From a virus (lineage: Duplodnaviria; Caudoviricetes): a stretch of DNA of 64,000 nt. The position numbers and the translations under genes are program-made. Location: IMG/VR virus record IMGVR_UViG_3300043812_000026. One strand, 5' to 3'. Shown here piece by piece: positions 4,244 through 19,445 of this stretch. Below the pieces are notes generated by a model, which was given only the letters and a program-made list of their open reading frames with translations, was not told the DNA's origin and made no database searches. How positions within the stretch are numbered: position 1 is the stretch's first letter; each line of letters begins with the position of its first letter.

Positions 4244-4493
4244 AAGTAAAATTGTATATACCTTAGAGGATAATTATAAGTTAATCTTAATCCGTGATAC
4301 CATTGAAGACGACGCTGTATTTTATATTACAGGTATAAGTAGTACTATTCATTTGCGTCAATTACCTAAAACTGACTTGCATACATTAATAAAATCAATT
4401 ACTGATGACTTGCCTGCTTGGATTCATGCGGTTTATATTGATAGAATGTTAATGTGGTGGAAGTATGATCAGATAAAACCAATAACAATATAA
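4236..4493 (+). CDS. Hypothetical protein
   Basis: 85-aa ORF, TTG start. Confidence 0.65.
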   Translation: MTKSKIVYTLEDNYKLILIRDTIEDDAVFYITGISSTIHLRQLPKTDLHTLIKSITDDLPAWIHAVYIDRMLMWWKYDQIKPITI

Positions 4494-4506
4494 AGGAGGC
4501 TTTTTA

Positions 4507-5079
4507 TTGGTTTACTTTATCTCACCTTATATTACTGCTGTTAGAGCGAAAAAATATAAGCGTAATGTGTTGCAACAAATTAATCACACCTATACTGCAA
4601 CCCGTTATTTAATTTATATTCCGGTTTTTATTGCTGGTTTAATTCCTAATGACTTAAATAATCCTAAACAGTACTTTTACTATGTAGGGGCAATGGTTCT
4701 TGTTTGCTTGTTAGCTTACTTATGTATTCGTTTGATTGCTTACTATTTTAAGTATTCGGTTAATAGAACTTCAATTGGCTTGCTTGATTATGTGATCTTG
4801 TATGAGACCAAAGAAGACCTGCCTTTAGACACAGTTAATCCATTGATTCCAACTTTTGAATATAATCGTACTCACCCTAAGAATAAGGTCTATTTTGGTG
4901 GCTATACCTTAGAGGAATTCCGAAAGGCTATGCAGGAGGTTTATGAAGCTAAAAACGATCGGCGATATGGAGAAGATACTCACCGTTATTTAGCTTTACT
5001 ATTCCATGATATGGAAGATTATTATATCCATACTTTGTCTGACCCCGCAGTAGAGCAAGAGGTGATTAAACATGACTAA
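4507..5079 (+). CDS. Membrane protein
   Basis: AAGGAGG RBS; two hydrophobic segments. Confidence 0.75.
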   Translation: MVYFISPYITAVRAKKYKRNVLQQINHTYTATRYLIYIPVFIAGLIPNDLNNPKQYFYYVGAMVLVCLLAYLCIRLIAYYFKYSVNRTSIGLLDYVILYETKEDLPLDTVNPLIPTFEYNRTHPKNKVYFGGYTLEEFRKAMQEVYEAKNDRRYGEDTHRYLALLFHDMEDYYIHTLSDPAVEQEVIKHD

Positions 5080-5557
5080 TGATAATGATAAATTAGATAA
5101 GGTAGAAAAAGCTTTAGACAAAATACGTGACTCCTTTCTGTTTCCTCGCCCAGAACTGAACAGCACTTTGGAAAAGAATACTAGAAATCTACTTGATGTT
5201 AGCTATTCACTTCTCTATTCGGCAAAGGAACAGCAATCTGAAATTGAAAAATTAAAAGAAGACTTAGCACGAAATAGTATATCAGACGAAGATCAAGTAG
5301 TTATCTGGGTTGATAATAAATATTATCTAATTATGAAATTGTTATACAATAATGTATCATTTGCATTGTCAAAGCCTCATTGTAATTGTGTTGGTTGTTA
5401 TTCCTATGGGGATGCTAAGTTTGTTTTAGATGGTAGTGATTATCATTCTTTACACCTTTTAGAGGATCATAATGTTGAGCTTATCCCGATAAAAGATTTT
5501 AACAAAAAACTAGAAACTAGTTATAGTTTCGTGGGGTTAGATTTTCATGAAGAATAA
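5072..5557 (+). CDS. Hypothetical protein
   Basis: 161-aa ORF, GAGGTG RBS. Confidence 0.75.
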   Translation: MTNDNDKLDKVEKALDKIRDSFLFPRPELNSTLEKNTRNLLDVSYSLLYSAKEQQSEIEKLKEDLARNSISDEDQVVIWVDNKYYLIMKLLYNNVSFALSKPHCNCVGCYSYGDAKFVLDGSDYHSLHLLEDHNVELIPIKDFNKKLETSYSFVGLDFHEE

Positions 5558-6143
5558 ATGGATTGTAATTTATTTTATTTTAGGCATTTTAGGGTTAGCT
5601 CTATTATTATTATTGGTTATCCCAGTTAATATTAAAACTGTTCGTACGCAGACTATTAATGTTTCAGACTCTCCACAAGTTAAAGTGGATCATATTAATG
5701 CAACGGTTGATTATTATGGAATGCCTAGCGATTGGGCTGATCCAGATTCTAGCGTTGACTGGGATTCTCTGTATAGTTTTGAAGCTGATCTAATGGATAG
5801 TTCTGACAATTATTTAACAGAAGGTGATAGGGTAGTGGATGAGTCTGTAATTAGAACTCTTAATGCAGTACCAGCTTATAACTATTATTCCCATACTAAG
5901 CACAGTTATCAAAAGGTTACACATCGTGTTACTAATATTTATGGTTTGCATTGGAATTACAGTTCTGATAATGATCATGATACATCTAAAATTGTACAGT
6001 CTAATGATAAATCTTATATCCCTATCTATTTAGATATTGATTGTCACTATAAACAAGGTAAGTATTCCCGTTCTAGGGATCTGCACTATAAGCTTGTGCC
6101 TAATGGGGATAAGTATGCAATGGTTAGTGGTGCTGATGATTAA
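5547..6143 (+). CDS. Membrane-anchored/exported protein
   Basis: N-terminal MKNKWIVIYFILGILGLALLLLLVIP anchor followed by hydrophilic domain. Confidence 0.75.
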   Translation: MKNKWIVIYFILGILGLALLLLLVIPVNIKTVRTQTINVSDSPQVKVDHINATVDYYGMPSDWADPDSSVDWDSLYSFEADLMDSSDNYLTEGDRVVDESVIRTLNAVPAYNYYSHTKHSYQKVTHRVTNIYGLHWNYSSDNDHDTSKIVQSNDKSYIPIYLDIDCHYKQGKYSRSRDLHYKLVPNGDKYAMVSGADD

Positions 6144-6146
6144 ACT

Positions 6147-6172
6147 AAAGTCCTTTATAGGGCTTTTTATTT
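6147..6172 (+). terminator. Rho-independent terminator
   Basis: AAAGTCCT-TTAT-AGGGCTTT hairpin plus T-run. Confidence 0.65.
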
Positions 6173-6191
6173 TTATCTTTTTACACAAAAA

Positions 6192-6222
6192 TAGTTGAAT
6201 ATTTAACTAAAAGTGTTATACT
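6192..6222 (+). promoter_or_regulatory. Class-II promoter with operator (copy 2)
   Basis: TAGTTGAATATTTAACTA-AAAGTGT-TATACT, same downstream leader as the 1535 copy. Confidence 0.75.
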
Positions 6223-6254
6223 TATAATTGAAATAAGGAAAGGAAGTTGTAAGG

Positions 6255-6410
6255 ATGGTTTTATACTTAGTTTACATTGCTCTTTGTTTTGCCTTTCTAT
6301 GGGGCATTACTCAAGCATTCCCATATTTTAAGCTTTTCATCTACTTAGGTGGGTGGATATTCTGTACTGTTGTCTATTTATTTTTGGTACTATATAATCC
6401 GGGGTGTTAA
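6255..6410 (+). CDS. Small membrane protein (51 aa)
   Basis: Directly behind class-II promoter and RBS; MVLYLVYIALCFAFLWGITQAFPYFKLFIYLGGWIFCTVVYLFLVLYNPGC. Confidence 0.7.
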   Translation: MVLYLVYIALCFAFLWGITQAFPYFKLFIYLGGWIFCTVVYLFLVLYNPGC

Positions 6411-6684
6411 TAATGGTAATTCTATTAATTTTGCTTTTAATGACTACGTTTGATTTAATAACTTTGTTGGTTGTCAATAACATTAAGCATGGAGTGAGGT
6501 AACTGTTAATAAAAATGCAGAGCTATAAGAATGATATAGAAACATATGCTATAGGTAAATCGTAGAAAGAATAAATGTAGGCGATTTATCAAGGATAATT
6601 GAATGAAACTAACTGAAAAATAGAAGAATTGTAAGTATTGTCATTATCCCTGGAAGAAAATCATTGTAGAGAGGTGGTAGAATA

Positions 6685-6879
6685 ATGTTAACAACACAAG
6701 CACGTTTGGCAAAGAAGAATAAACAGCCGGTTAGGTTAGTTGGTGACCTGTATCGCATAATTGACATTAAGCACGTTAATGGAACAAGAAAGATGGTTGC
6801 CACAATTAAGAAAATAGGCTTGGATCAGTATCGATATAAGCCAATTGATGTTGACGTTGATTATTTAGAACAAGCATAA
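6685..6879 (+). CDS. Small basic hypothetical protein resembling Lactobacillus prophage proteins
   Basis: GAGGTGG RBS; 64 aa; terminator downstream. Confidence 0.65.
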   Translation: MLTTQARLAKKNKQPVRLVGDLYRIIDIKHVNGTRKMVATIKKIGLDQYRYKPIDVDVDYLEQA

Positions 6880-6900
6880 CTATAGTGAATAACATATTAG

Positions 6901-6937
6901 AGACCAAAAATTTTATTATTAGATTTTGGTCTTTTTT
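6901..6937 (+). terminator. Rho-independent terminator ending the + strand block
   Basis: AGACCAAAA...TTTTGGTCT plus TTTTT. Confidence 0.7.
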
Positions 6938-7252
6938 GTTTTGCTTCCTTTTCTAAATTCCAGTTAGGTAAAAAGACGGGGGTGTACTAGAGGCAAGATA
7001 AAGATATAGATAGGGGTAAAACAAGGACATTAATAGAGATAAAGATAGCTGTTCATGAATCGGGTGAACAGCAGAATTTCTAGTATAAAAATTTTTTGGG
7101 CTGGGGAATAGAGAACCTAGCCTTTTGTGAACCTAGCCTTCAAGATTAACGGGGGTGTGGTCTCAACCGTATTAACTAGACCCGAAGACTAGAAAACCTA
7201 TTTAGCAAAATAAAAAAGCCCCTTCGGTAAAAAGTACCAAAGAAGCTAATAG

Positions 7253-7465
7253 TTAGATTAGGTTAAATTTTAATTTTAGGAATAAGACAATCAACAATAA
7301 ACCAGCACCAGCAAAGCTTACTAGTATAGTGCAGACACCAGTGCAAGCCGTTGAGTATTCAATTCCGAGTAGTTTAGAAGTAGCCTTACAAGTTAGCTCC
7401 AGCAAGCTAATTAAAGCATTAGCAAGCAAATAGAATAAGTTATAAACACTAATTAATAAAGTCAT
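7253..7465 (-). CDS. Small membrane protein (70 aa)
   Basis: Start MTLLISV placed at the repeat RBS; hydrophobic. Confidence 0.7.
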   Translation of the reverse strand: MTLLISVYNLFYLLANALISLLELTCKATSKLLGIEYSTACTGVCTILVSFAGAGLLLIVLFLKLKFNLI

Positions 7466-7811
7466 GATAAAACTTCCTTTTTCTTTATTTCTTATTACAT
7501 TATTATAATACAATAAGCATTTTATATTGTCAATACATAATCATAAAATAAAAGGTTAATTATCATATAGCCTTAATTGCTTGTATAAGGCTTTCTAAGA
7601 CGTTTTATGATAGTTAGGTGTAATTAATCATTAAAGCAATAAGACAAGCACAGACAAGCAAACAGACTAAAATAATAATAAACTGAGTTAAATAGATAAG
7701 AATAAAGGGGATGATTTATAATAATGTTGCAAATGCAACAATCCATCCCCTGCATAGATAAGACTGATAATAAAGCAAAAATAAAAAGGACTTATGAAAA
7801 GCCCTTGAATA

Positions 7812-8240
7812 TTATTTAAATCCTAATTGGTCGTTAATGTAGTTCACAATGCTATCTGCTTGCGGGTCGGTTAAGTCTTCTTCAATATCAATATCAAACT
7901 CATCACTTAAATCATTTAACACGCATTCTATGTTAATATATGCAACCATATTAGCAACCTTTTTAGGGTCGCTTAAATCTGTATTAACTAATCCAAATTG
8001 TTCAGTTTCATAACTCTTGACGTACTCAATAGCACCAAAGACACCGTTTAAATTAGTGCTTGCATAAAGCTGATCTTCCTCACTAAACTCTTCTAATGCT
8101 TGTGAAGCCTTATATGTTCCAATAATCCATAAATTGTTGCTAGTAGTATTCATTTGAATATCTTCAAGTGAATTGCTTCCGTTTTCTAATGCATCCGCAA
8201 TAGTTGATAACATAGTGTTGTAGTTAAATTCTTCAGTCAT
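7812..8240 (-). CDS. Highly acidic early protein, candidate Ocr-like DNA mimic
   Basis: D/E-rich 142 aa; WIIGTYKASQAL...GAIEYVKSYETEQFG...TDLSDPKKVANMVAYI; own promoter cassette. Confidence 0.5.
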   Translation of the reverse strand: MTEEFNYNTMLSTIADALENGSNSLEDIQMNTTSNNLWIIGTYKASQALEEFSEEDQLYASTNLNGVFGAIEYVKSYETEQFGLVNTDLSDPKKVANMVAYINIECVLNDLSDEFDIDIEEDLTDPQADSIVNYINDQLGFK

Positions 8241-8327
8241 AATAATTACTTCCTTTTCTTTATTTATCTTACATTATAATAATAACATTGTTAGTTATTA
8301 TTGTCAATAAAAAATTTAACTTTTTAT

Positions 8328-8657
8328 TTATACAATAGCTGGAAAGTCTTTACCAGTTACGTAGTTTTCTAGCTTGTCGCCTTGATAGTTGGCTGAAAAT
8401 TGCTTTGCAAATTCCTTTTCGTGACGGCTAGTAGTAGCGCTATAAATACCATTAGATAAAAACTTTCCATCTGGTAAAATGCAAGCTACGACCACATTAT
8501 AAGATAATAGCAACTTTACACCATTTACCAGGCTTTTGACCTTGGCTTTACCATAGAATGATTTTCGGCTATCATAACGGGGGTTCAAATCTTCCCAATT
8601 AGTAGCGCTTTGAGCATTGAGCAATTCATTTAAGTTATAAGCAAATTTCTTCATCAT
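8328..8657 (-). CDS. Conserved phage early hypothetical protein
   Basis: KSFYGKA...LLSYNVVVA...YSATTSRH motif; own promoter cassette. Confidence 0.75.
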   Translation of the reverse strand: MMKKFAYNLNELLNAQSATNWEDLNPRYDSRKSFYGKAKVKSLVNGVKLLLSYNVVVACILPDGKFLSNGIYSATTSRHEKEFAKQFSANYQGDKLENYVTGKDFPAIV

Positions 8658-8728
8658 TTTAATAACTTCCCTTCATTTGATTACATTATAATAATAACAT
8701 TGTTGGTTATTATTGTCAATAGTTTTAT

Positions 8729-9037
8729 TTAATTTTGTTGTAATTCTTCCCACGTAGACTCATCATCGTAATAATCAACAGTCCCCTCAATGTAATTATC
8801 GATTTCCTTATCTTCGCCCCCGTTTTCCCAATAATGATCAAATTGTTCTTGAGTCCAATTTAAGTCATACATATAATAATCAATAGCGGATTCATACACT
8901 ACTTCTGACAATCCAGTGTTAGCGATGACAAGTTCTTTTTCTTCTTTACCCCGTTTCATTGTTAAAATAGCTTCACCGTAAGTTGTTTCAATAAGACTAA
9001 CTAATTCAGTTTTTACCTTGTCTGTTAATTTTTCCAT
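8729..9037 (-). CDS. Acidic early protein
   Basis: 102 aa, E/D-rich; own promoter cassette. Confidence 0.8.
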   Translation of the reverse strand: MEKLTDKVKTELVSLIETTYGEAILTMKRGKEEKELVIANTGLSEVVYESAIDYYMYDLNWTQEQFDHYWENGGEDKEIDNYIEGTVDYYDDESTWEELQQN

Positions 9038-9126
9038 TTTTATTACTTCCTTTTCTTATTACATTATAATAATAACATTGTTAGTTATTATTGTCAATAG
9101 TTTATTTAAATTTTTATCTGGTCTGA

Positions 9127-9381
9127 TTATTTTAGTTTGTTAAATTCTTCAATTCTATCAATTCTATTAATTAGTTTGATAACTAAATTATTAGTGATTC
9201 CATTGGCTTGTAACTGTTCCTGCTCCTTTGGTGTAAGCAATTGCCAACTATCGTTAACAATTAGATTTTGTGGAAAAATGTTAGCATTATCATGTACAGT
9301 CTGTAAACTGATACTAGCATTAGTTGCTTCCCTTACCTTGTTAGCTAAATCATTCAGAACATTTTTAATATCATTAGTCAT
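9127..9381 (-). CDS. Early hypothetical protein, paralog of 12564-12836
   Basis: Shared motif VN(D/N)SWQL(L/M)TP(K/R)EQE...RI(D/N)R. Confidence 0.8.
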   Translation of the reverse strand: MTNDIKNVLNDLANKVREATNASISLQTVHDNANIFPQNLIVNDSWQLLTPKEQEQLQANGITNNLVIKLINRIDRIEEFNKLK

Positions 9382-9448
9382 TTTTATAACTCCCTTTCTT
9401 TATTACATTATAATAATAACATTGTTGGTTTAGATTGTCAATAGTTTT

Positions 9449-9505
9449 TCTAAATAATTAAGAGTTTAAGCTTAACTCTCAAAATAAATCCTTGTTTCTT
9501 ATTAC
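9449..9505 (-). ncRNA. Repeated non-coding hairpin unit, copy A
   Basis: GUAAUAAGAAACAAGGAUUUAUUUU-GAGAGUU-AAGCUUA-AACUCUU-AAUUAUUUAGA directly after a promoter. Confidence 0.5.
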
Positions 9506-9755
9506 ACTTTTATAATAGCATACTTTTAACATAATGCAAGCCCTAATTTTAATTTTTATTGATTGATTTTAGCAATTATAGCACCTACTAGATAAACAAT
9601 AACTAGAATAGCCCTAATTTTCCATGTAAGCTATTCTGAGGCGTTTTATCATTGTTTAGGTATAATCTATCATTAAAGAATAAAAATGAATTATACGGGG
9701 TTATATAAAGAAATAGGGCTATAGGATAATCAAGTTTCTTTTTTCTAAATAAGTA

Positions 9756-9950
9756 TTGACAATGAAGCCTAATAATGTTATTATAATAATGAAAGGTAAA
9801 TAGAACAAGCCCAGATAGCTGGTAAGGGAAACCGTTTTGGTTGTTGTTAGCTAGATATGTTTAGAGTAATCCGTACTTTTTTAAAAATCAATTGTCTACT
9901 TCCCTAATCATATACATCCACCGTATAGCCCTAATTAATCCAAGGCTATA
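9756..9950 (+). ncRNA. Candidate small RNA from an oppositely oriented early promoter
   Basis: TTGACA(9756)-N17-TATTAT(9779); no ORF; stem 9816-9825/9844-9853; closing hairpin 9924-9950. Confidence 0.45.
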
Positions 9951-10524
9951 TTCTGTTCTCAATGTTACAGTCCATATTATTCAGTTGTTTAATTAGTTTG
10001 TTTTTATCCTTATCACTTCCCTTCCTTAACTTTCAATTATATTATATCATTATGTAATCGTATTGTCAACACATTTATAGAATTAATTGGATCGATCCAC
10101 TTATTAATAATGCTATTATATCAGTCTTCACGGGGCTTTTTTAACTCTAAAATTTATCAGTTGTTAAAATATTTTTATTAATTTATTTATACATTTTTGG
10201 TTCCATTCTGTTTTGATTAGTCTTTAATTAGTTTACTTTGCCTTTAATTAGTCCTTTATTGTTTGAATATTGTTATGTATTAGTCCTATATAGCTAATAT
10301 TATGCTTGTTTTAGGCTTTATTAGTCTAATTAAGGCTTTTTATCCTCTTTTATTGGCTTTTATAAGGCTTTTTTATTGTTTTTAATTAGTGAAAATCATC
10401 ACTAATTACTCTTGTTATGCTTATCTTTTATATATAAAATTAAAAGGGTGAAAACTCGTTAAACGTTGATATTACAACATTCTCAGTTTTTACCCTTGCT
10501 TGTGAATTGTTTAATTTATTCCCT

Positions 10525-10845
10525 TTACCGGAAAAGCTTATACTCTTCAACTAGTTTTTGCTTTAATTCAAAGATAACACTAGCTAGTCTATCGCTTAAA
10601 TCCTTATATTCTGCATTATCATAGCTTAACAGAATTGAGTCAAGGCGGTGTAATTCCTTATAGTATATACTATCAATATAATGAAGTGTATTATCCTTTA
10701 CTAGTGCAATATCGCCCACGCCTAAACTCTTGTAATTCTGATTCATGTAATAGTTATTACTATCTTTAAAATAGCTTACTTTTATTTTGTCTTTATTACC
10801 ATTAATACTAACAGTAACTTCTTTTTGTTCTAGTCCTTTTTTCAT
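10525..10845 (-). CDS. Early hypothetical protein
   Basis: 106 aa; AAGGAAGGAAG RBS; upstream promoters including TTGACT-N17-TATAAA at 10925-10953. Confidence 0.75.
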   Translation of the reverse strand: MKKGLEQKEVTVSINGNKDKIKVSYFKDSNNYYMNQNYKSLGVGDIALVKDNTLHYIDSIYYKELHRLDSILLSYDNAEYKDLSDRLASVIFELKQKLVEEYKLFR

Positions 10846-11067
10846 TGTGATACTTCCTTCCTTATCTTTTAATTATATTATATCATATTGTATTTACTTT
10901 GTAAAGATACAATTTTAAGATTATTTTATACCACAACAACCGCAAGAAGTCAAGGCTTTTACTGGGTAAAGTTATAAAGTTAGGTTTGTCTAAATTATGT
11001 TGTATTTGCAACAATTTTTTAATCTATTATTTGACTTTTACAACAAAAGAAGGTAGGGCTGAATATA

Positions 11068-11115
11068 TTGTTTTATTCTGCTTACTTGTTTTATTCTGCT
11101 TACTTGTTTTATTCT
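11068..11115. repeat. 18-bp tandem repeat (~2.7 copies)
   Basis: TTGTTTTATTCTGCTTAC repeated. Confidence 0.85.
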
Positions 11116-11139
11116 TTGATATAAAAAAAAGAAGGTAAA

Positions 11140-11322
11140 CTAATCACCTTCTTTAATTACTTTATATACAATTGAATTTTTTTCTAGCTCATCCAATCCT
11201 ACTAGATACTTATAGTTAGGGTTAATATTAATTACTTGATAATTTTTATCAAAATAGCAATTATCACCTTGTGAATTTTGAAAATCAATCATATCTTTAC
11301 CCGTCATTACAATAGGCTCCAT
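11140..11322 (-). CDS. Early hypothetical protein
   Basis: 60 aa, AAGGAG RBS. Confidence 0.7.
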   Translation of the reverse strand: MEPIVMTGKDMIDFQNSQGDNCYFDKNYQVININPNYKYLVGLDELEKNSIVYKVIKEGD

Positions 11323-11337
11323 TTTAATTGCTCCTTA

Positions 11338-11655
11338 TTAATAATCATATTCTGAACGGCGTAAACCTAAATAATAACACTTACCATCTTCAGCTTTACC
11401 AAATGATTTGTAAAGATAACTTTCTGGGTCGTCATCATCCGTTGTATAAGCTTCACCCATGCAAAATGTTTGAATGAACTTGATACCTAACTGATTTTCT
11501 AAAATTTTTTTCGTTGCTTTTTCTAATGGATAAGGTGGCAAAACTTCATACATTTCAGAATAGATTTCATAGTCAACTTCTTGAAATAACTTTGGATTTA
11601 ATTCACCAGTTGCTTCATTATTCCAATCTTCCATAGTATATACATTATTAGTCAT
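11338..11655 (-). CDS. Acidic early protein (possibly DUF1419-like)
   Basis: EIYSEMYEVLPP...FCMGEAY...YYLG pattern; own promoter cassette. Confidence 0.6.
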   Translation of the reverse strand: MTNNVYTMEDWNNEATGELNPKLFQEVDYEIYSEMYEVLPPYPLEKATKKILENQLGIKFIQTFCMGEAYTTDDDDPESYLYKSFGKAEDGKCYYLGLRRSEYDY

Positions 11656-11732
11656 AATTATAACTCCCTTTCTTTATTACATTATTATAATAACATTGTT
11701 TTGTTATATTGTCAATAGATTAAATTAAAAAA

Positions 11733-12044
11733 TTAAATATGTTCGATAATATTATCATAGTCAAATTCTTGTAATAAATAACGGTTTAAATCTTTCATAA
11801 AATAAGTAACTTTCATTTTACCCTCTTTTTCTAGTTGGTTGTTTTCTAGGTCAAAAAATCCAAAATCACCAGTTATAAGATTAACAACTTGAATATCACC
11901 ATAATAGTTAACAATCATTCCAAAGTAGACTTGATTTTTATTATTAACAAATAGTCGAGAATTACTATCAAAATTATCAAAATCCAAATCTTCAGCAATT
12001 CCACACGCTTGATTAAGGTTGTTCATATATGTTTCAATAATCAT
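11733..12044 (-). CDS. Acidic early protein
   Basis: 103 aa; hairpin unit lies in its 5' leader. Confidence 0.75.
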   Translation of the reverse strand: MIIETYMNNLNQACGIAEDLDFDNFDSNSRLFVNNKNQVYFGMIVNYYGDIQVVNLITGDFGFFDLENNQLEKEGKMKVTYFMKDLNRYLLQEFDYDNIIEHI

Positions 12045-12080
12045 TTTTATTACTTCCTTTTCTTATTCTTATTAATAAAG

Positions 12081-12136
12081 TCTAAACACGTAAAAGTTTA
12101 AGCTCAACTCTTGAAATAATCCTTGTTCCTTATTAC
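12081..12136 (-). ncRNA. Repeated hairpin unit, copy B
   Basis: AAGAGUU-GAGCUUA-AACUUUU (C>U change keeps a G-U pair). Confidence 0.5.
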
Positions 12137-12180
12137 ATTATTATAATAACATTATTGTGTTATATTGTCAATAGATAATA

Positions 12181-12534
12181 TTAAAAAATTGAATAAGGTT
12201 TGAAATAAATACCTGCAGGCGTTTGTTTATAACTTTTTAATTCTTGTTGAATAGGTAAAGGGTAATCGTTGAACAAGTCTTTAATAGCATTCTCACCATT
12301 AACCAATAAATACTCTTCTTGTAGCGTATCTTCTGGATAATAGCCTAATTCTAGCTTATTAGCTAATTCATTAAGGTTAGTACTTGACCCTTCAACGTTG
12401 CCTTCCCAATCAGTTAAAACGTGTTCATAAGTAACTGAATAAAGTTCTGCATTTTTGTAGTCATTAGCCTTTGAATAAACAAAATGCTTGTAAAAACGGG
12501 AATCACCATACTCTGGTAGTTTGTAGATTTTCAT
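12181..12534 (-). CDS. Early hypothetical protein
   Basis: 117 aa; repeat-type RBS without its own promoter. Confidence 0.75.
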   Translation of the reverse strand: MKIYKLPEYGDSRFYKHFVYSKANDYKNAELYSVTYEHVLTDWEGNVEGSSTNLNELANKLELGYYPEDTLQEEYLLVNGENAIKDLFNDYPLPIQQELKSYKQTPAGIYFKPYSIF

Positions 12535-12563
12535 TTTTATAACTTCCTTTTCTTATTTTAATA

Positions 12564-12836
12564 TTATGCTTCTAATCGATTAATCCGATCAGCTAATTTT
12601 TTAGCTAACTCCCAGCTTGAACCGCAAAGCAGAACTTCTTCTTGTTCCCGTGGGGTCATTAATTGCCACGAGTTATTGACTACGAGAACGTGTTCAACAA
12701 TGTTAACAGGGTCATCAATTGCTTTATAGTCAATCATCGCCCGTACCTTAAGATAGCGGGAAACCATACCAGCCAATTCATGGAATTTGTCGCAAGCGTA
12801 AATATTGACTTCTTGTTGTTCAGTTAAACGTTTCAT
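12564..12836 (-). CDS. Early hypothetical protein, paralog of 9127-9381
   Basis: Start MKRLTEQQ at the repeat RBS; shared SWQL.TP.EQE motif. Confidence 0.8.
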   Translation of the reverse strand: MKRLTEQQEVNIYACDKFHELAGMVSRYLKVRAMIDYKAIDDPVNIVEHVLVVNNSWQLMTPREQEEVLLCGSSWELAKKLADRINRLEA

Positions 12837-12904
12837 TTTGATAACTTCCTTTTCCTTATTACAATTATATAATAACATTGTTAGTTATTATTGTCAACCC
12901 TTTT

Positions 12905-12960
12905 TCTAAATAATTAAGAGTTTAAGCTCAACTCTTGAAATAATCCTTGTTCCTTATTAC
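12905..12960 (-). ncRNA. Repeated hairpin unit, copy C
   Basis: Sits alone between two tandem promoters (12990 and 12892). Confidence 0.5.
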
Positions 12961-13008
12961 ACTTTTATAATAACATTATTGTGTTATATTGTCAATACTA
13001 ATTACATA

Positions 13009-13467
13009 TTATTTTTTGGGAATTTTAAAATCCTTGTCTTTTAAGAATTTCAAAGAATTATACATATTATACGAGTGTCCGTATTCTCTTTGATTTGTTA
13101 GTAAATCAATAAATATGTTATTAATAAAAATGTAGTTATCAAAAACAGTTAACATCCTTTTATAGCGGGGTTGCCAAACTAATAAGCAACTTGAAAAGTT
13201 AGGGGCGTAAATTCTAATGGTATCAATTTTAATTACTTGCTTTAATTCATAATCTAACGCCTTGAATGTAATTAGATTAGTTTCTGAATCTGGTTTTGTG
13301 TAGTCATCCATGTTAATCATATATGAACGGTAAAAACTATACATAGATTTAGGCTTGTTTTGCGGTTTGATTTTGAAAAAATCTTTTAAGGTTAACACAA
13401 TCCAGTCAACCCCCTTTATCTTCTTACCCACAATGGTGTCATAATTGTTACAAAAATAATTATCCAC
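13009..13467 (-). CDS. Early hypothetical protein
   Basis: 152-aa ORF; start uncertain. Confidence 0.6.
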   Translation of the reverse strand: MDNYFCNNYDTIVGKKIKGVDWIVLTLKDFFKIKPQNKPKSMYSFYRSYMINMDDYTKPDSETNLITFKALDYELKQVIKIDTIRIYAPNFSSCLLVWQPRYKRMLTVFDNYIFINNIFIDLLTNQREYGHSYNMYNSLKFLKDKDFKIPKK

Positions 13468-13613
13468 CAGTTAGCAGGGTCAAGCATAGATAACACGATA
13501 ATAGGAGTAACAAGCACCAGTAAACAGATAATAATTATTTTTTTGATCTTTTTATAAGATTCTGGAATCTGTTTATCACGTACATAATTACGGCGGTTGT
13601 CCCTTTCATTCAT
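13416..13613 (-). CDS. Small membrane protein
   Basis: Poly-G RBS then MNERDNRR; two hydrophobic segments. Confidence 0.65.
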   Translation of the reverse strand: MNERDNRRNYVRDKQIPESYKKIKKIIIICLLVLVTPIIVLSMLDPANWWIIIFVTIMTPLWVRR

Positions 13614-13629
13614 AATTGCCCCCCCCCTT

Positions 13630-13920
13630 TTATCTACTCTCAATTAATGCTTCAACCGTGTTAAGGCTATCAGTAATTACTTGACTAACTTTTTCTAATT
13701 CCTTATTAGTAGGATTGTTACGGTTAATCAATAGCTTGTGTGTACCACTGTTATTAGTCGTGTAGATTAATACATCGTTTTTGTCGGTGCTATCATAGTC
13801 AAAAAGCCAATTGCCTTCATAATAAACGTTCAATAAATCAAGGTCGATTGTAATATCATCGCCTTCAAGCACAAAGTCTACAAGTTCCATGATTTTATTA
13901 GTTAATTCCACATTAGTCAT
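13630..13920 (-). CDS. Early hypothetical protein
   Basis: 96 aa; own promoter cassette. Confidence 0.8.
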   Translation of the reverse strand: MTNVELTNKIMELVDFVLEGDDITIDLDLLNVYYEGNWLFDYDSTDKNDVLIYTTNNSGTHKLLINRNNPTNKELEKVSQVITDSLNTVEALIESR

Positions 13921-13987
13921 TTTGATTACTTCCTTTTCTTTATCTTACATCATTATAATAACATTGTTGGTTAGTATTGTCAATAGA

Positions 13988-14395
13988 TTATTTAAAATAT
14001 ATCGATAAATAATTTATTAAATCGTATTGTAATTTTTTGCTAGTCTTAGCAATAGTAATAACTTTTTTAGTATTGTCTAATTCTACTACTTTCCACCATT
14101 TTTCATTGACTAAATTGTTAACGTCAACTTCATGGATACCGAGTACATTGTACTGTATTTTATTATAATTATTGAGTTCAAATTTTTGGATGTATTGACT
14201 TAAAACATCAATCGCAATTTTTGACCCCGCTTTCCCACTTGTAAGAACATCCAAAGCCTTATCAAATTTACTTTCAGAAACAAGGTCAAAGGCTTTTTCT
14301 AAGTATTCAAGTTGTTTCAATGTTTTTGCATCCTTCTTGCATAAGTCTTTTTTGAGTTCTAAATTGTGATTAAATGTTTTTGTAATGTTATCCAT
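13988..14395 (-). CDS. Early hypothetical protein
   Basis: 135 aa; hairpin unit in its 5' leader. Confidence 0.8.
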   Translation of the reverse strand: MDNITKTFNHNLELKKDLCKKDAKTLKQLEYLEKAFDLVSESKFDKALDVLTSGKAGSKIAIDVLSQYIQKFELNNYNKIQYNVLGIHEVDVNNLVNEKWWKVVELDNTKKVITIAKTSKKLQYDLINYLSIYFK

Positions 14396-14429
14396 TTTAA
14401 TATACTTCCTTTTCTTATTAAATTTACAG

Positions 14430-14486
14430 TCTAAACACTTAAGAGTTTAAGCTCAACTCTTGAAATAAATCCTTGTTCCTTATTAC
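14430..14486 (-). ncRNA. Repeated hairpin unit, copy D
   Basis: AAGAGUU-GAGCUUA-AACUCUU. Confidence 0.5.
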
Positions 14487-14530
14487 ATTATTATAATAAC
14501 ATTGCTAGTTATTATTGTCAATAGATAATG

Positions 14531-14936
14531 TTAAAAAATTAGCTTAAAAATATTAGTAATATAATTATCTTTTAAGTCTAGTATATTATTACGATAATAT
14601 AGATTGACACCATCAACACCAAGGTAATCATGTAAGATTGTAGAATTAACATTTTCTAAAAAAATATACTTCTCACTTGCATCCATCCAGTTAAACAACC
14701 ATAAAGCAATAGGCGTTTCATCATTATCATGGTTATCGTACCAGTCATCGAGTTCAGTCCAGCACTCACGAAGTCCAGTTTCATCTTCTTCCATGAAAGC
14801 CATCGAAGTCACCATCGTATAAATCGTTAACTGTATCATTAACACGATTTTCAAGGTCAATAGCGCTTAAGGCTTGAACTTGCGCACTCTTTAATTCCAT
14901 TTGATTAATAACATTCATGATTTCTTCATTAGTCAT
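14531..14936 (-). CDS. Acidic early protein (~134 aa) broken by one extra base at ~14800
   Basis: MTNEEIMN...DGDFD joins AFMEEDETG after removing one G (GATGGCT to GATGCT); start at the repeat RBS. Confidence 0.7.
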
Positions 14937-15004
14937 TTTTATTACTTCCTTTCCTTATTACATTATTATAATAACATTGTTAGTTATTATTGTCAACCCT
15001 TTTT

Positions 15005-15061
15005 TCTAAATAATTAAGAGTTTAAGCTCAACTCTTGAAATAAATCCTTGTTCCTTATTAC
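15005..15061 (-). ncRNA. Repeated hairpin unit, copy E
   Basis: First unit of the early block, between two tandem promoters. Confidence 0.5.
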
Positions 15062-15287
15062 ACTTATTATAATAGCATACTTTTAACGAAATGCAAGCCC
15101 TAATTTTAATTTTTATCTGGTTTGGTAACTATAACCCCTACTCACTCAACAGATACACAATTTTTTAGATTATTTTCTTCATATAATAGCAAATAGGACA
15201 AATTTAACACGCTTATAAATACCACACTAATCAATAGAAGTCAAGGCAAAACAACACATTTTTTAATCTGTCTTTTTTCTTAAAAAA

Positions 15288-15370
15288 CCTCTGGTACTCG
15301 AAAATTAATATAATATAAAAGGAACCCATTTTACTGGATTCCCTCTGGTACTCGAAAATTAATATAATAT
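15288..15370. repeat. 29-bp perfect direct repeat flanking a minus-strand terminator
   Basis: CCTCTGGTACTCGAAAATTAATATAATAT at 15288 and 15342; between them GGAATCCA-GTAAAA-TGGGTTCC-TTTT (minus strand); partial third copy at 17847. Confidence 0.85.
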
Positions 15371-16176
15371 TAGTCTAGTTTATTGGTAGCAGTTAACATA
15401 CTAACCACCATTATCAATAAGTTTCCTTCTGTACCTCGTAGTGTAATTTCTGTTTCTAGTGCGCTTTCGCCTTTGATAAATTTATTTAAGGACTCCTCGG
15501 AATTAGTTCCGTCTAATTTTCTCCAAGCACTAGAGTCACAATTAACTAATGTTAAAGGTTTAGTATCTAATAACATATGGTAATTATTTCTAATATCAAT
15601 ACCATAAGCATTAAAATAGGTAGTTCTTACTACGCTAGAGTCTAAGTCTTTAATCTCGCTAAAAAATATCGGCGTACTGTTAAACATTAATTTAGTTACT
15701 CGTCCTAATAAACCTAAATTAATTAACTCAGACAAATTATAAAGACTAATATCTTTATCATCCCAACTAGGCTTAATTAGTGGGGTAATTAGATACTCCC
15801 TTTCCCCCATTAATAGGTTAAACACGTATTGGTCATAGTAAAGCTTAACAATCGTATAGTCATGATTATCAACTTTAAATTCTCGATACTCATAATAACG
15901 GGGTACCTTATTTAGAAAAGTCCATTCATGAGGTTCACTTTCCTCAAACAGACCGGAGGGGTCATTCTTCAAATTCCATTCTAGCATTTCTTGACTTGAA
16001 AAAGTGCTGAATTGTAATAGTTCTAAGTCTTTACTAAAACGGGGTTGAGCAACTAGATAAGTAAAACCTCTTTGACCTACATCTTTAGCTTGGCTAATAC
16101 TCATGCTAATTAAGTGGTAGTTTTCTATGTGGTTAGCCATTGCCCGAGATGTTTTTAACTTCTTATACGTAATCAT
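15370..16176 (-). CDS. Hypothetical protein
   Basis: 268-aa ORF. Confidence 0.8.
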   Translation of the reverse strand: MITYKKLKTSRAMANHIENYHLISMSISQAKDVGQRGFTYLVAQPRFSKDLELLQFSTFSSQEMLEWNLKNDPSGLFEESEPHEWTFLNKVPRYYEYREFKVDNHDYTIVKLYYDQYVFNLLMGEREYLITPLIKPSWDDKDISLYNLSELINLGLLGRVTKLMFNSTPIFFSEIKDLDSSVVRTTYFNAYGIDIRNNYHMLLDTKPLTLVNCDSSAWRKLDGTNSEESLNKFIKGESALETEITLRGTEGNLLIMVVSMLTATNKLD

Positions 16177-16177
16177 A

Positions 16178-16471
16178 CTACTTCATTCTTTCACTGTATT
16201 TTTTGAGCATAGCTTTCGGATCCATAATGTCGTCTAAAATCCCACTTTCATCTAGTTGTTTCATTAAGTCCAATAGAGCAGGAATGGCATATGCTTTAAT
16301 GTTATTATTAACTACTTTCGGTGTTAAATCAAGGATGTAATTAATAATATGTTGGTCTGGTGTTAAATCCCCAGCATTAAAAATAAAGTCGATTAACTGT
16401 ACTAAATGTTTCTTGGTTAAAACATGATCTGAGATTGATTTCAATTCATTTTCTAAGACACCTAAGATCAC
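16178..16471 (-). CDS. Hypothetical protein
   Basis: 97 aa, tightly packed operon. Confidence 0.7.
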   Translation of the reverse strand: MILGVLENELKSISDHVLTKKHLVQLIDFIFNAGDLTPDQHIINYILDLTPKVVNNNIKAYAIPALLDLMKQLDESGILDDIMDPKAMLKKYSERMK

Positions 16472-16472
16472 A

Positions 16473-16766
16473 TTAAGCGTAGAGTCTTCTACAGTCTACC
16501 TCTTCAATCTTACTGATTAGTAAGTCCCGATCATATCCATATTTAGAAACACCTGCACCAGCAATCGTCTTCTCTAACGTTTCATGTAGTTGAGTACTAC
16601 CCATCTCTCTTAGTGCTTTATAATTTTCAAGTCCGAATGGAATAAAGTAAGTATCTTTATCCACTTTAATTACACTAAAGTTTTCAATTGGAACAATTTG
16701 TACGGCAACATCACCCATACTAGTCATATAGTAGCTAGTGTTATGTCTCATTGCATTAAATTTCAT
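16473..16766 (-). CDS. Hypothetical protein
   Basis: 97 aa, GGGGAG RBS. Confidence 0.75.
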   Translation of the reverse strand: MKFNAMRHNTSYYMTSMGDVAVQIVPIENFSVIKVDKDTYFIPFGLENYKALREMGSTQLHETLEKTIAGAGVSKYGYDRDLLISKIEEVDCRRLYA

Positions 16767-16780
16767 TATTAATCTCCCCT

Positions 16781-17495
16781 TTAGTTTAAGCTTAACCCAG
16801 CATTGTTTAATTGTCTAATTAATTCTTTACCATCTTTAGTTGCACCAATCTGATTAACAATCTGGTTTACTCGCTTATCAATTTCATTTAAGGCTTCTTC
16901 TTGTTTATCTTTAGGAATGTATCGAACAAAAATTTCCTTTAGTGCAGTCATTTCAGACTCTTTAATTAATTGGTACTGCATAAGAGCTTCCGCAGTCAAA
17001 CCTCTTGTTCTGCTACCGAAGTATTTAGCATGAAGACTTAGGGCACTCATTAATGTTTTAGGGTCAATAAATTCAGACTCCTCAATAGTTTTTATACCCT
17101 TGTCAATAATCATTTCCAAGGCTTGATCCTCAGAATATAACTTTCTTACTGGACCAGTTGCAGAGTTGCTTACTACTGGTTGTTGACTTTGACTTTTAAG
17201 TTCATTAGTTTTACCAGTAAAGCCAACAATCTTATTACTGTCTACATCATCAATAGAATTCTTTTCTCGCTTATCCATTAACTGTTCTAATGGAATATTT
17301 TGTTCTTGTGATTCTTTAATTCTTTTCTTAAGTTTAGTAAGGTTTCCCTTAGCCATTTTATAGCCTTTGGAATTTAAATAGCGAATGATATAATCATAGC
17401 TCATTTGTTGTTCCATTAGTCCCGATAACCTTACTAAAAATAGCCTTATTGTTATAAAGCTCTTTTAAGCTTAGTGATTTTAAGTCTGTAGCCAC
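16781..17495 (-). CDS. Conserved phage protein with possible N-terminal HTH (~237 aa), broken by an extra G at ~17422
   Basis: AGGAGG RBS plus GTG at 17495; MATDLK...KVIG joins LMEQQMSY after removing one G. Confidence 0.7.
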
Positions 17496-18057: not shown

Positions 18058-18230
18058 AGCAAATACAATACCTTGCCGTCAACTACCTAGCACTAAAGTA
18101 CTAGGCTTGTAACTCACAATTAGTTATCTAGCTAATTAGAAGTACAAACATTATTAGTATCTAATAACTCCTTCGTAACGTGGTTACATTGGGCTGGTTG
18201 ACAACAACCTCTACTATTAACATATCAGTC
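18058..18230 (-). ncRNA. Putative omega/reRNA of TnpB #1 with flanking guide GGCAAGGUAUUGUAUUUGCU
   Basis: Non-coding region between the tnpB stop and the RE, plus 3' flank; 5' end uncertain. Confidence 0.65.
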
Positions 18231-19445
18231 AATAGCGTTAATTATTTCAAATTTAGGATTAGGATTACCAGTAATATACTGTTTCCCAAGATCATATAAG
18301 TTTATAGCACCAATCCGATCATCATTAGTCTTAAAACCGCAATGGTCACAGATATATAGGTGTAATTTATGATTACGGTTATCCTTTCTAATTTGTCCAC
18401 ATCTAGGACAGCGTTGGCTTGTATATTGTGCTGGCACCTCTAGTACAGTTGATCCTACTAAGTTAGCCTTATATTTTAACTTTGTTTCTAAATCATAGAA
18501 TGCCCACGAATGTAAATCTCTAATATTATCCTTAGACTGCATTCTTTGTTCAAAGGAAACATCAGTTAAGTCTTCTAAGACAAATAGTGTATTTTTACCA
18601 CAGTGGTCAATAAGTGTCTTCGACAAACAATGATTAACATCATTCATCCAGCGGTTCTCTTTTTGACCTAGTTTCTTTAATTTGTGCTTAGCAGACTTAG
18701 TACCACATTTTTGCAATTGTTGTCGTAAGTATTGATACTTCTTACGTCTATAAGCAATTGTCTTACCATTAAAGAACTTAGTATTACCTTGTTCATCATA
18801 GAGAGTCATGATCTGTCGTAACCCACGATCTATACCAACAATATGTTGGTTATTATCCTTAGTCCAATCTAGGCACTCCCGTTCATAGGAAATATGTAAA
18901 TACCATTTACCTTGATTATGAACTAACTTAGCTCCACCCAGTTTAACTTGGTCATTAATAAGAATATTAATGTAAGTTTGGTCGTAATCAACCTTAATTC
19001 TTTTGCCAATAACATTCATGGAAATTTGTGTTGCATTCTTGACAAATGAGTAATTAGATTGACGAACATAATCAGCCTGTGGTCGCTTAAAATTAATTGG
19101 TTTTTGCAACCAACCTAAGTTTCGATATTGCTTATACCACTTACCAGTATTCTTATCTTGATAATGATAGGGATGCTGTTTTATCTGTGTTTCTACGGTT
19201 TTATATCTAGCTACCACAGTCCTAAAAGTAGATTGAACCATCAATGAATTTAATTCACTATTAGATCGTAACGGATAGTACATTTCTTTTTGAAATTCTT
19301 TCCTATTAGGCTTGAAATAGCTATCAAAATACCATTGACTTACAATGTTACAAACTCGTTGATATTCCTTAGATACTGCTTTAAGCATACCAGCCTGTTC
19401 TTGGGTAGGATATAGTCTAACTTTAGCAGTTAAATTTTGTATCAT
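18225..19445 (-). CDS. tnpB: TnpB RNA-guided endonuclease
   Basis: N-term KVRLYPTQEQ; RuvC I GIDRG, II VLEDL, III DDRIGAIN; Zn finger CPRC...CDHC. Confidence 0.93.
   Translation of the reverse strand: MIQNLTAKVRLYPTQEQAGMLKAVSKEYQRVCNIVSQWYFDSYFKPNRKEFQKEMYYPLRSNSELNSLMVQSTFRTVVARYKTVETQIKQHPYHYQDKNTGKWYKQYRNLGWLQKPINFKRPQADYVRQSNYSFVKNATQISMNVIGKRIKVDYDQTYINILINDQVKLGGAKLVHNQGKWYLHISYERECLDWTKDNNQHIVGIDRGLRQIMTLYDEQGNTKFFNGKTIAYRRKKYQYLRQQLQKCGTKSAKHKLKKLGQKENRWMNDVNHCLSKTLIDHCGKNTLFVLEDLTDVSFEQRMQSKDNIRDLHSWAFYDLETKLKYKANLVGSTVLEVPAQYTSQRCPRCGQIRKDNRNHKLHLYICDHCGFKTNDDRIGAINLYDLGKQYITGNPNPKFEIINAID

Follow-up and report, generated by a model that had tools for sequence, protein, structure and literature searches.

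Early RNAs of phage SP82 carry repeated processing hairpins (PMC4838370, PMC1935012), and sequences resembling a Shine–Dalgarno (SD) site stabilize Firmicute mRNAs, SP82 phage RNA included, without being translated (PMC7509114, PMC3997798). Here, we describe a repeated hairpin unit in a 64,000-nt stretch of DNA, analyzed at its full length and called the window throughout, from the IMG/VR virus record IMGVR_UViG_3300043812_000026 (Duplodnaviria; Caudoviricetes). Judging from the DNA sequence, the unit is best explained as a clade-specific RNA element that makes up the first ∼57 nt of the transcripts predicted from a subset of host-σA early promoters. Like the early-mRNA hairpins of SP82 and SPO1, it is a conserved hairpin element repeated in the leaders or intercistronic regions of early (here, predicted) transcripts of an SPO1-type Firmicute phage, and its hairpin is accompanied by a purine tract that resembles an SD and does not require a start codon (PMC4838370, PMC1935012, PMC7509114). 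The surroundings also appear to match the early-region setting of SP82-type sites, as the units of the window lie among σA-type promoters and small ORFan genes. In contrast, the SP82 sites have long stems with internal loops and are cut once by RNase III, whereas the stem here has 7 bp and would probably not be long enough for RNase III, except in a pair of units forming the predicted 20-bp duplex described below. The two elements share no sequence similarity, and their parts are ordered differently, the SD preceding the hairpin here and the hairpin preceding the stabilizer in SP82. The complete relative G002 was searched for a Ribonuclease_3 domain (PF00636), and none was detected. SPO1 (L196) itself contains repeated promoter/leader/hairpin modules at 4378–7937 and 11811–12481 (families D2, D5, and D7), which are unrelated in sequence to the unit.

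The STAB-SD elements (cryIIIA, aprE, and gsiB) likewise place near the 5′ end an SD-like sequence that is unused for initiation (PMC3997798, PMC7509114); however, they occur as single copies in cellular leaders and need no conserved-loop hairpin downstream. The promoter-early stem-loop (PeSL) elements of T4-type phages join near-identical strong early promoters to a stem-loop and are repeated across an ORFan-rich early region, where, as seen here, the repeats mark the borders of the insertions and deletions that distinguish relatives (PMC2839356, PMC4122927). The PeSL stem-loops differ in being G+C-rich, strong terminators situated mostly within or around the promoter, whereas the present hairpin is weak and rich in A+U, is placed after the predicted +1, has an invariant loop, and follows only some of the promoters. 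Short promoter-proximal hairpins with a conserved loop are also known from early transcripts as the nut sites (boxA/boxB) of phage lambda and the put sites of HK022, and promoter-driven, repeated short structured phage RNAs without an open reading frame (ORF) are known as RNA anti-CRISPRs (solitary repeat units) and ToxI-type mimics. Unlike nut and put, the present unit has a loop of 7 nt around an AGCU core instead of a GNRA-like pentaloop, and we identified neither a clear boxA nor an N-like factor. ToxI is a tandem array of ∼35-nt repeats, whereas the units here are dispersed; in further contrast to RNA anti-CRISPRs and ToxI, each of them has the orientation of a downstream gene and lies close to it, and their core matches no host repeat in the exact-pattern genome scan given below.

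Five hairpin units and their predicted promoters

The 21-nt core of the hairpin (two 7-nt stem arms around a 7-nt loop) occurs five times in the window, each time on the minus strand, with 0 occurrences expected from 100 shuffles. A covariance model run over the 64 kb with its filters off recovered these five units only (E 1e-14 to 1e-16; next best match, E 0.41), in agreement with an earlier sequence-only reading of the DNA that had proposed five repeated hairpin units at these positions. In the direction of transcription, they are unit E (15005–15061; hairpin 15016–15036; 88.1 bits in the covariance model), unit D (14430–14486; hairpin 14441–14461; 84.9 bits), unit C (12905–12960; hairpin 12916–12936; 90.1 bits), unit B (12081–12136; hairpin 12092–12112; 80.5 bits), and unit A (9449–9505; hairpin 9460–9480; 82.5 bits). 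Alignment of the five loci gave a unit length of 56–57 nt and a common order of parts: a shared leader start, an AAGGA motif without a start codon, the invariant TTATTTC, a 7-bp stem, a 7-nt loop of the form (A/G)AGCTTA (AAGCTTA in unit A), and a tail of the form A..T.TTTAGA. In unit E, for example, an orphan SD is followed by the hairpin and an AU-rich tail. The hairpin occupies +26 to +46 of the predicted transcript. Among 17 distinct copies from the window and its relatives, all 17 have AAGGA or AAAGG inside the first 19 nt, and none has a conserved ATG, GTG, or TTG at SD spacing after this motif. A mini-ORF inside the unit was rejected, as the sole candidate has a TTG start that is present in the G-loop copies only and absent from the A-loop copies; the earlier statement that the units have no conserved ORF thus stands.

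Each unit starts 7–8 nt past the −10 box of a minus-strand promoter (P1) with an extended −10 (TGnTATTAT) and a −35 box 17 nt upstream. With its first G at this distance, the unit plausibly begins at the predicted +1 of an early promoter, as had been suggested. Eleven near-identical σA-type promoters (TTGACA, 17 nt, TGnTATTAT) are present on the minus strand between 8.2 and 15.1 kb, and two further ones with a weaker −35 belong to units A and E. P1 is canonical for units B (12143–12171), C (12967–12995), and D (14493–14521). P1 of unit E (15069–15097) combines the variant −35 box CTTGCA with the extended −10 TGcTATTAT and is of the same type as P1 of unit A (9512–9540; CTTGCA and extended −10), which was read from the sequence and the alignment. 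Most of the ordinary promoters in the cluster lead straight to a ∼25-nt leader (GTAATAAGGAA..., SD, ATG) and a small gene. Downstream of units A, C, and E, a second complete minus-strand promoter (P2) follows after 18 nt. P2 of unit E (14968–14996) is canonical (TTGACA-17-TGtTATTAT) and is followed by an SD and an ATG at 14936, P2 of unit C (12869–12897) was found in the motif scan, and P2 of unit A (9413–9441) precedes an 84-aa gene (9381–9127). Units D and B, by comparison, run directly into the SD and ATG of a 135-aa gene (14395–13988) and a 103-aa gene (12044–11733), respectively. These arrangements bear out the distinction between tandem-type units lying between two promoters (A, C, and E) and leader-type units (B and D). 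A reading of the promoter motif as a middle promoter for a phage σ factor was rejected, as the motif is found nowhere else in the 64 kb, and so was a plus-strand antisense promoter (TTGAAA-17-TACATT), which has 9/12 matches and lacks the TG.

The early cluster consists of minus-strand genes from ∼15.1 to 7.2 kb and is split into several transcription units; a terminator scan placed minus-strand terminators (stems of 8–13 bp and T-runs) at 15346–15317, 11154–11128, 7806–7786, and 7247–7217. Unit E is the first promoter-driven element past the terminator at 15346–15317, units E and A each head an early transcription unit, and plus-strand genes below 6.9 kb converge on the cluster. The position of E and A, the three terminators inside or at the ends of the cluster (11154–11128, 7806–7786, and 7247–7217), and a promoter-proximal hairpin with a conserved loop, as in boxB, would suit a nut/put-like site at which the nascent hairpin loads a polymerase-modifying factor for read-through of early terminators. 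Such antitermination nevertheless seems distinctly improbable. Units B, C, and D lie mid-operon, the genes behind the terminators have strong promoters of their own, and the cluster ends against the convergent plus-strand genes with nothing downstream that needs read-through; in addition, a boxA-like partner motif and an N-like protein were not identified, as stated above. The presence of five copies, some of them mid-operon, and the lack of promoterless genes behind terminators set the locus apart from nut and put, and its layout gives no call for the nut/put-like site that the sequence-only reading had listed among its options.

The hairpin itself is unlike the terminators of this phage. Its stem has 2 G-C pairs, it is followed directly by AA, and the U-tract beyond is poor; the terminator scan omits the unit yet lists stems of 8–13 bp nearby. 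An intrinsic terminator was rejected on these grounds. A weaker variant, in which the hairpin is an attenuator or pause site that tunes transcription from P1 into the downstream gene, would draw on the partly U-rich stretch after the hairpin and on the PeSL stem-loops, which act as terminators (PMC2839356). We consider it very improbable indeed, as the same features of the 7-bp stem (the first two bases after it being A) and the same scan speak against it, and an attenuator would not need an invariant loop.

Conservation of the unit in related phages

Five IMG/VR records and two metagenome contigs from ENA contain the unit. One of the contigs is the same 152,691-bp sequence as IMG/VR record G002, which leaves six distinct related records, or seven with the window. 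Four larger records contain 4–7 copies each, a 53-kb fragment (G006) contains one, and OBLI01000024 contains three in the 5.7-kb stretch that was fetched; across the records, all copies are housed in the early cluster. Matches from a promoter-motif scan and from a protein search with the D gene were limited to the same clade. An exact-pattern scan for the hairpin core in 185,579 prokaryote species genomes, which diverged repeats would escape, returned two unrelated single matches and no arrays. When one promoter–unit cassette was compared with 50,697 GenBank phage records by sensitive blastn, its promoter halves matched Herelleviridae of Staphylococcus and Listeria and the hairpin part was left unmatched. 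Rfam, at E up to 10, gave nothing relevant over 8000–17000 or over one cassette alone. The element is clade-restricted and undescribed, and the earlier remark that it belongs to no described family agrees with these searches.

The identity of the phage was assessed from its proteins. The conserved exonuclease of the window is 30–41% identical to those of Lactobacillus, Bacillus, and Staphylococcus Herelleviridae, and a TnpB ORF (18225–19445) is 65% identical to TnpB genes on plasmids of Ligilactobacillus salivarius and Fructilactobacillus sanfranciscensis. Because of these similarities, we regard the phage as an SPO1-like (Herelleviridae-type) myovirus whose host is probably a member of the Lactobacillaceae. 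The phage is distant from sequenced isolates, and the region had no megablast match among GenBank phages.

Pairing across the stem was analyzed in the 17 distinct copies from the seven records, which provide 119 stem cells, and all 119 are paired. Three fully compensated stem versions were found (AAGAGTT/AACTCTT, AAGGATT/AATCCTT, and AAGAATT/AATTCTT) together with two G-U variants. The compensated double changes affect two stem positions (A-U to G-C and G-C to A-U), and two stem positions have G-U changes that pair on the transcribed strand only and would be A-C on the other. Among the latter are the two stem variants noticed in the window at the outset, A>G in the 5′ arm of copy A, where two extra closing pairs extend the predicted helix from the conserved 7 bp to 9 bp, and C>U in the 3′ arm of copy B; both indeed give G-U pairs in the minus-strand RNA. 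None of 500 shuffles reached the observed percentage of pairing or the observed covariation score, sliding the 3′ partner by 1–3 columns reduced pairing to 17–60%, and RNAalifold gave the same helix. Copies with AAGAGTT and AAGGATT stems coexist in G002, those with AAGAGTT and AAGAATT stems coexist in OBLI01000024, and all three versions occur at orthologous positions at the 135-aa gene. The variant stems came from stem-free pattern scans. In one loose scan, most of the matches listed were due to chance, with AAGGATT emerging after filtering; another loose pattern scan also gave mostly chance matches, with no additional variant among the matches listed. In the copies found with the covariance model, which did not force these parts, the AGCT core of the loop is invariant, as are the AU-rich flanks on both sides. 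Together, these comparisons make it look as though base pairing, rather than the sequence of the stem, is under selection, and the compensatory double changes in relatives strengthen the case for selection on RNA structure that had been built on the G-U variants. Because the pairing is maintained by matching mutations, the hairpin is probably functional.

The unit is also linked to genes. A gene starts 31–77 nt past the unit in 27 of 28 copies, and the 28th locus ends too soon; seven of the 28 are plain 5′ untranslated regions (UTRs). None of the 28 copies was found to have a terminator of its own, and no tandem array of the unit was found, the copies in the window being 0.5–2.6 kb apart. Orthologous genes retain the unit across genomes, with the second promoter either present or neatly absent. 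One gene family (window 13630–13983; loci L009, L161, and L175) occurs in three states, namely, behind a promoter only (window 13630–13920), behind P1–unit–P2, and behind P1–unit–leader. The whole cassette is thus acquired and lost as one module, and recombination between near-identical promoters is the simplest explanation.

This modular behavior would also be expected of a signal acting at the DNA level, either a hairpin or cruciform that drives cassette shuffling or a protein site located at about +36 relative to P1 and −64 relative to P2. The three states of the one family would fit this reading, as would the PeSL elements, which join early promoters and stem-loops, flank ORFans, and recombine, once inside the loop (PMC2839356); in addition, a DNA hairpin or template-switch repair would also keep the arms compensated. 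We nevertheless consider a DNA-level role quite unlikely. The differing stems within one genome make a dimeric, base-reading double-stranded DNA operator unlikely, and the one-sided changes give G-U on the transcribed strand and A-C on the other. Moreover, all copies lie at the same distance from the predicted +1 and in the sense orientation, the leader-type copies have no P2 to regulate, and the palindrome is an imperfect dyad, offset by one base.

Alternatively, the unit could be a passive passenger, a functionless relic that spreads with the promoter repeat by recombination. The near-identical promoter repeats of ∼50 nt should drive duplication and deletion, the energy of the hairpin is unremarkable, and a gene can dispense with the unit. 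However, the P1 and P2 repeats, ∼100 bp apart, should readily delete the unit, yet it is kept in all seven records. It is also better conserved than the neighboring coding sequence: in comparisons with the most distant relative, unit and adjacent coding sequence have identities of 93% vs 76%, 77% vs 68%, and 82% vs 59%. As the pairing is furthermore maintained across three stem versions, we regard a passenger as improbable.

Cis-acting and trans-acting readings of the unit

A cis-acting leader element fits these data best, because a gene start is near in every copy with enough flanking sequence, a terminator of its own is lacking, and the linkage between unit and gene is kept. The placement thus agrees with the 5′ mRNA stabilizer or processing site that the sequence-only reading had offered as one of its options; the effect on the message is a separate matter, on which we commit ourselves only tentatively and with somewhat less than even confidence. 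Specifically, the unit may combine an orphan SD with a hairpin read by a protein and may thereby control the processing or stability of early mRNA. RNase Y-type cleavage usually takes place where a hairpin is flanked by AU-rich single strands. According to this proposal, the unit would act in cis on the early mRNA that bears it. The orphan SD could hold a 30S subunit, similar to STAB-SD and the polypurine 5′ stabilizers of SP82, and a protein could read the hairpin and its AU-rich flanks, the simplest candidate being a host endoribonuclease such as RNase Y. Once cut at the unit, the downstream message would begin with a hairpin-capped 5′ end that resists RNase J1, and the outcome would be defined, long-lived early mRNAs made out of read-through and tandem-promoter transcripts.

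Several observations weigh against this proposal. The hairpin lies ∼25 nt from the predicted 5′ end, too distant to shield that end unless the RNA is cleaved first. It is also weak (−6.4 kcal/mol), with a z-score of about 0 against shuffles, and is not thermodynamically unusual by itself. The covariation comes from just three types of stem in phages that are close relatives, and compensation could be mimicked if template switching corrected a DNA quasi-palindrome. When full P1 transcripts were folded, the unit had no consistent effect on the accessibility of the downstream SD, and masking of that SD by the unit was rejected. The genes downstream of the tandem-type copies already have a complete promoter and leader of their own, and what they would gain in cis is unclear. 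The gene family found with and without the unit indicates that the unit is not essential for expression. Finally, a simple stability role leaves the invariant palindromic loop unexplained, and a cis-acting role leaves the ORF-less cassettes upstream of complete promoters unexplained. A helix closing the 5′ end of the leader-type copies was considered separately and rejected as a general feature, since it is predicted in copy B and in relatives but not in copy D.

Because the palindromic loop and the ORF-less cassettes are left over by the cis-acting reading, a trans-acting RNA stays alive as its rival, although we consider it unlikely. Each cassette would produce an abundant early RNA of ∼55 nt that sequesters a host protein, maybe as a loop dimer; taken jointly with this reading and just as unlikely, the proposed targets are a defense nuclease, an RNA-binding regulator, or 30S subunits bound via the SD-like motifs. 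Most copies are ORF-less cassettes ahead of a complete promoter, which is poorly explained in cis, and the larger records have 4–7 copies of the unit behind very strong promoters. The invariant loop core and flanks and the covarying stem are as expected for a hairpin read by a protein or an RNA. The loop sequence (A/G)AGCTT is self-complementary, as had been pointed out for its 6-nt palindrome, and the chance of this in a 7-nt loop of such composition is 4% (Watson–Crick pairs) to 11% (with G-U pairs); the kissing-loop signal to which it had been likened is a putative one, seen at the level of sequence. A homodimer of the unit is predicted to form a 20-bp duplex with two bulged A residues that is more favorable than two separate hairpins by 9–11 kcal/mol, a result equaled by only ∼5% of the loop-shuffled controls. 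Avoidance of a restriction site was rejected as an explanation of the loop, as AGCT is common in the window (359 sites).

Conversely, no copy has a terminator or other defined 3′ end that would delimit a small RNA, the U-tract after the stem is poor, and the units do not form tandem arrays. A gene lies within 77 nt of every copy with enough flanking sequence, and seven of the 28 copies are plain 5′ UTRs. The core has no counterpart in the species genomes scanned for its exact pattern, leaving neither a host RNA nor a CRISPR repeat as an evident model for mimicry. A more specific form, in which the cassettes provide several gene copies of one short early RNA that dimerizes via the AAGCUU loop and captures a host protein in the manner of a sponge or decoy, is a rather unlikely one. 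For the CRISPR-repeat or ToxI mimic imagined in the sequence-only reading, nothing positive emerged from either the genome scan or the search for arrays.

The early host-takeover regions of large Firmicute phages read almost wholly as lists of small proteins, and the present unit adds a conserved, covarying RNA element to them. If the unit is a stability or processing signal, it would serve as a short, portable leader sequence for expressing genes strongly and early in lactic acid bacteria and would show how transcripts from stacked promoters are managed. If it acts in trans, it would represent a new RNA-based takeover or anti-defense device and, in the case of a decoy RNA, a new class of phage counter-defense RNA that shares its shuffling cassettes with the small early proteins. 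In both cases, one gene with three promoter states clearly exemplifies, outside the T4-type phages, how regulatory cassettes are shuffled between near-identical promoters.

Other features of the early cluster

Ten early proteins were compared with PHROGs, and no family was assigned to any of them. The genes after units A (9127–9381) and C (12564–12878) are paralogues that fall into one blastp cluster. The gene after unit E (14531–14936) has a 1-nt insertion relative to three relatives, which splits a 131-aa ORF into ORFs of 51 and 109 aa; the insertion is either a frameshift or a sequencing error. Between 9560 and 10520, an ORF-less stretch lies under two strong promoters that point toward each other, one being a copy of the early promoter on the plus strand (9756–9784) and the other a minus-strand promoter with a perfect consensus (10069–10041). 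The stretch retains ∼75–81% identity in relatives and may encode overlapping non-coding RNAs. Just past the terminator at 11154–11128, on the minus strand, a perfect 18-nt tandem repeat is present in 2.7 copies (11068–11115). Just upstream of the early cluster, a direct repeat of ∼28 nt (cctctggtactcgaaaattaatataata, two copies; 15290–15370) overlaps the terminator at 15346–15317.

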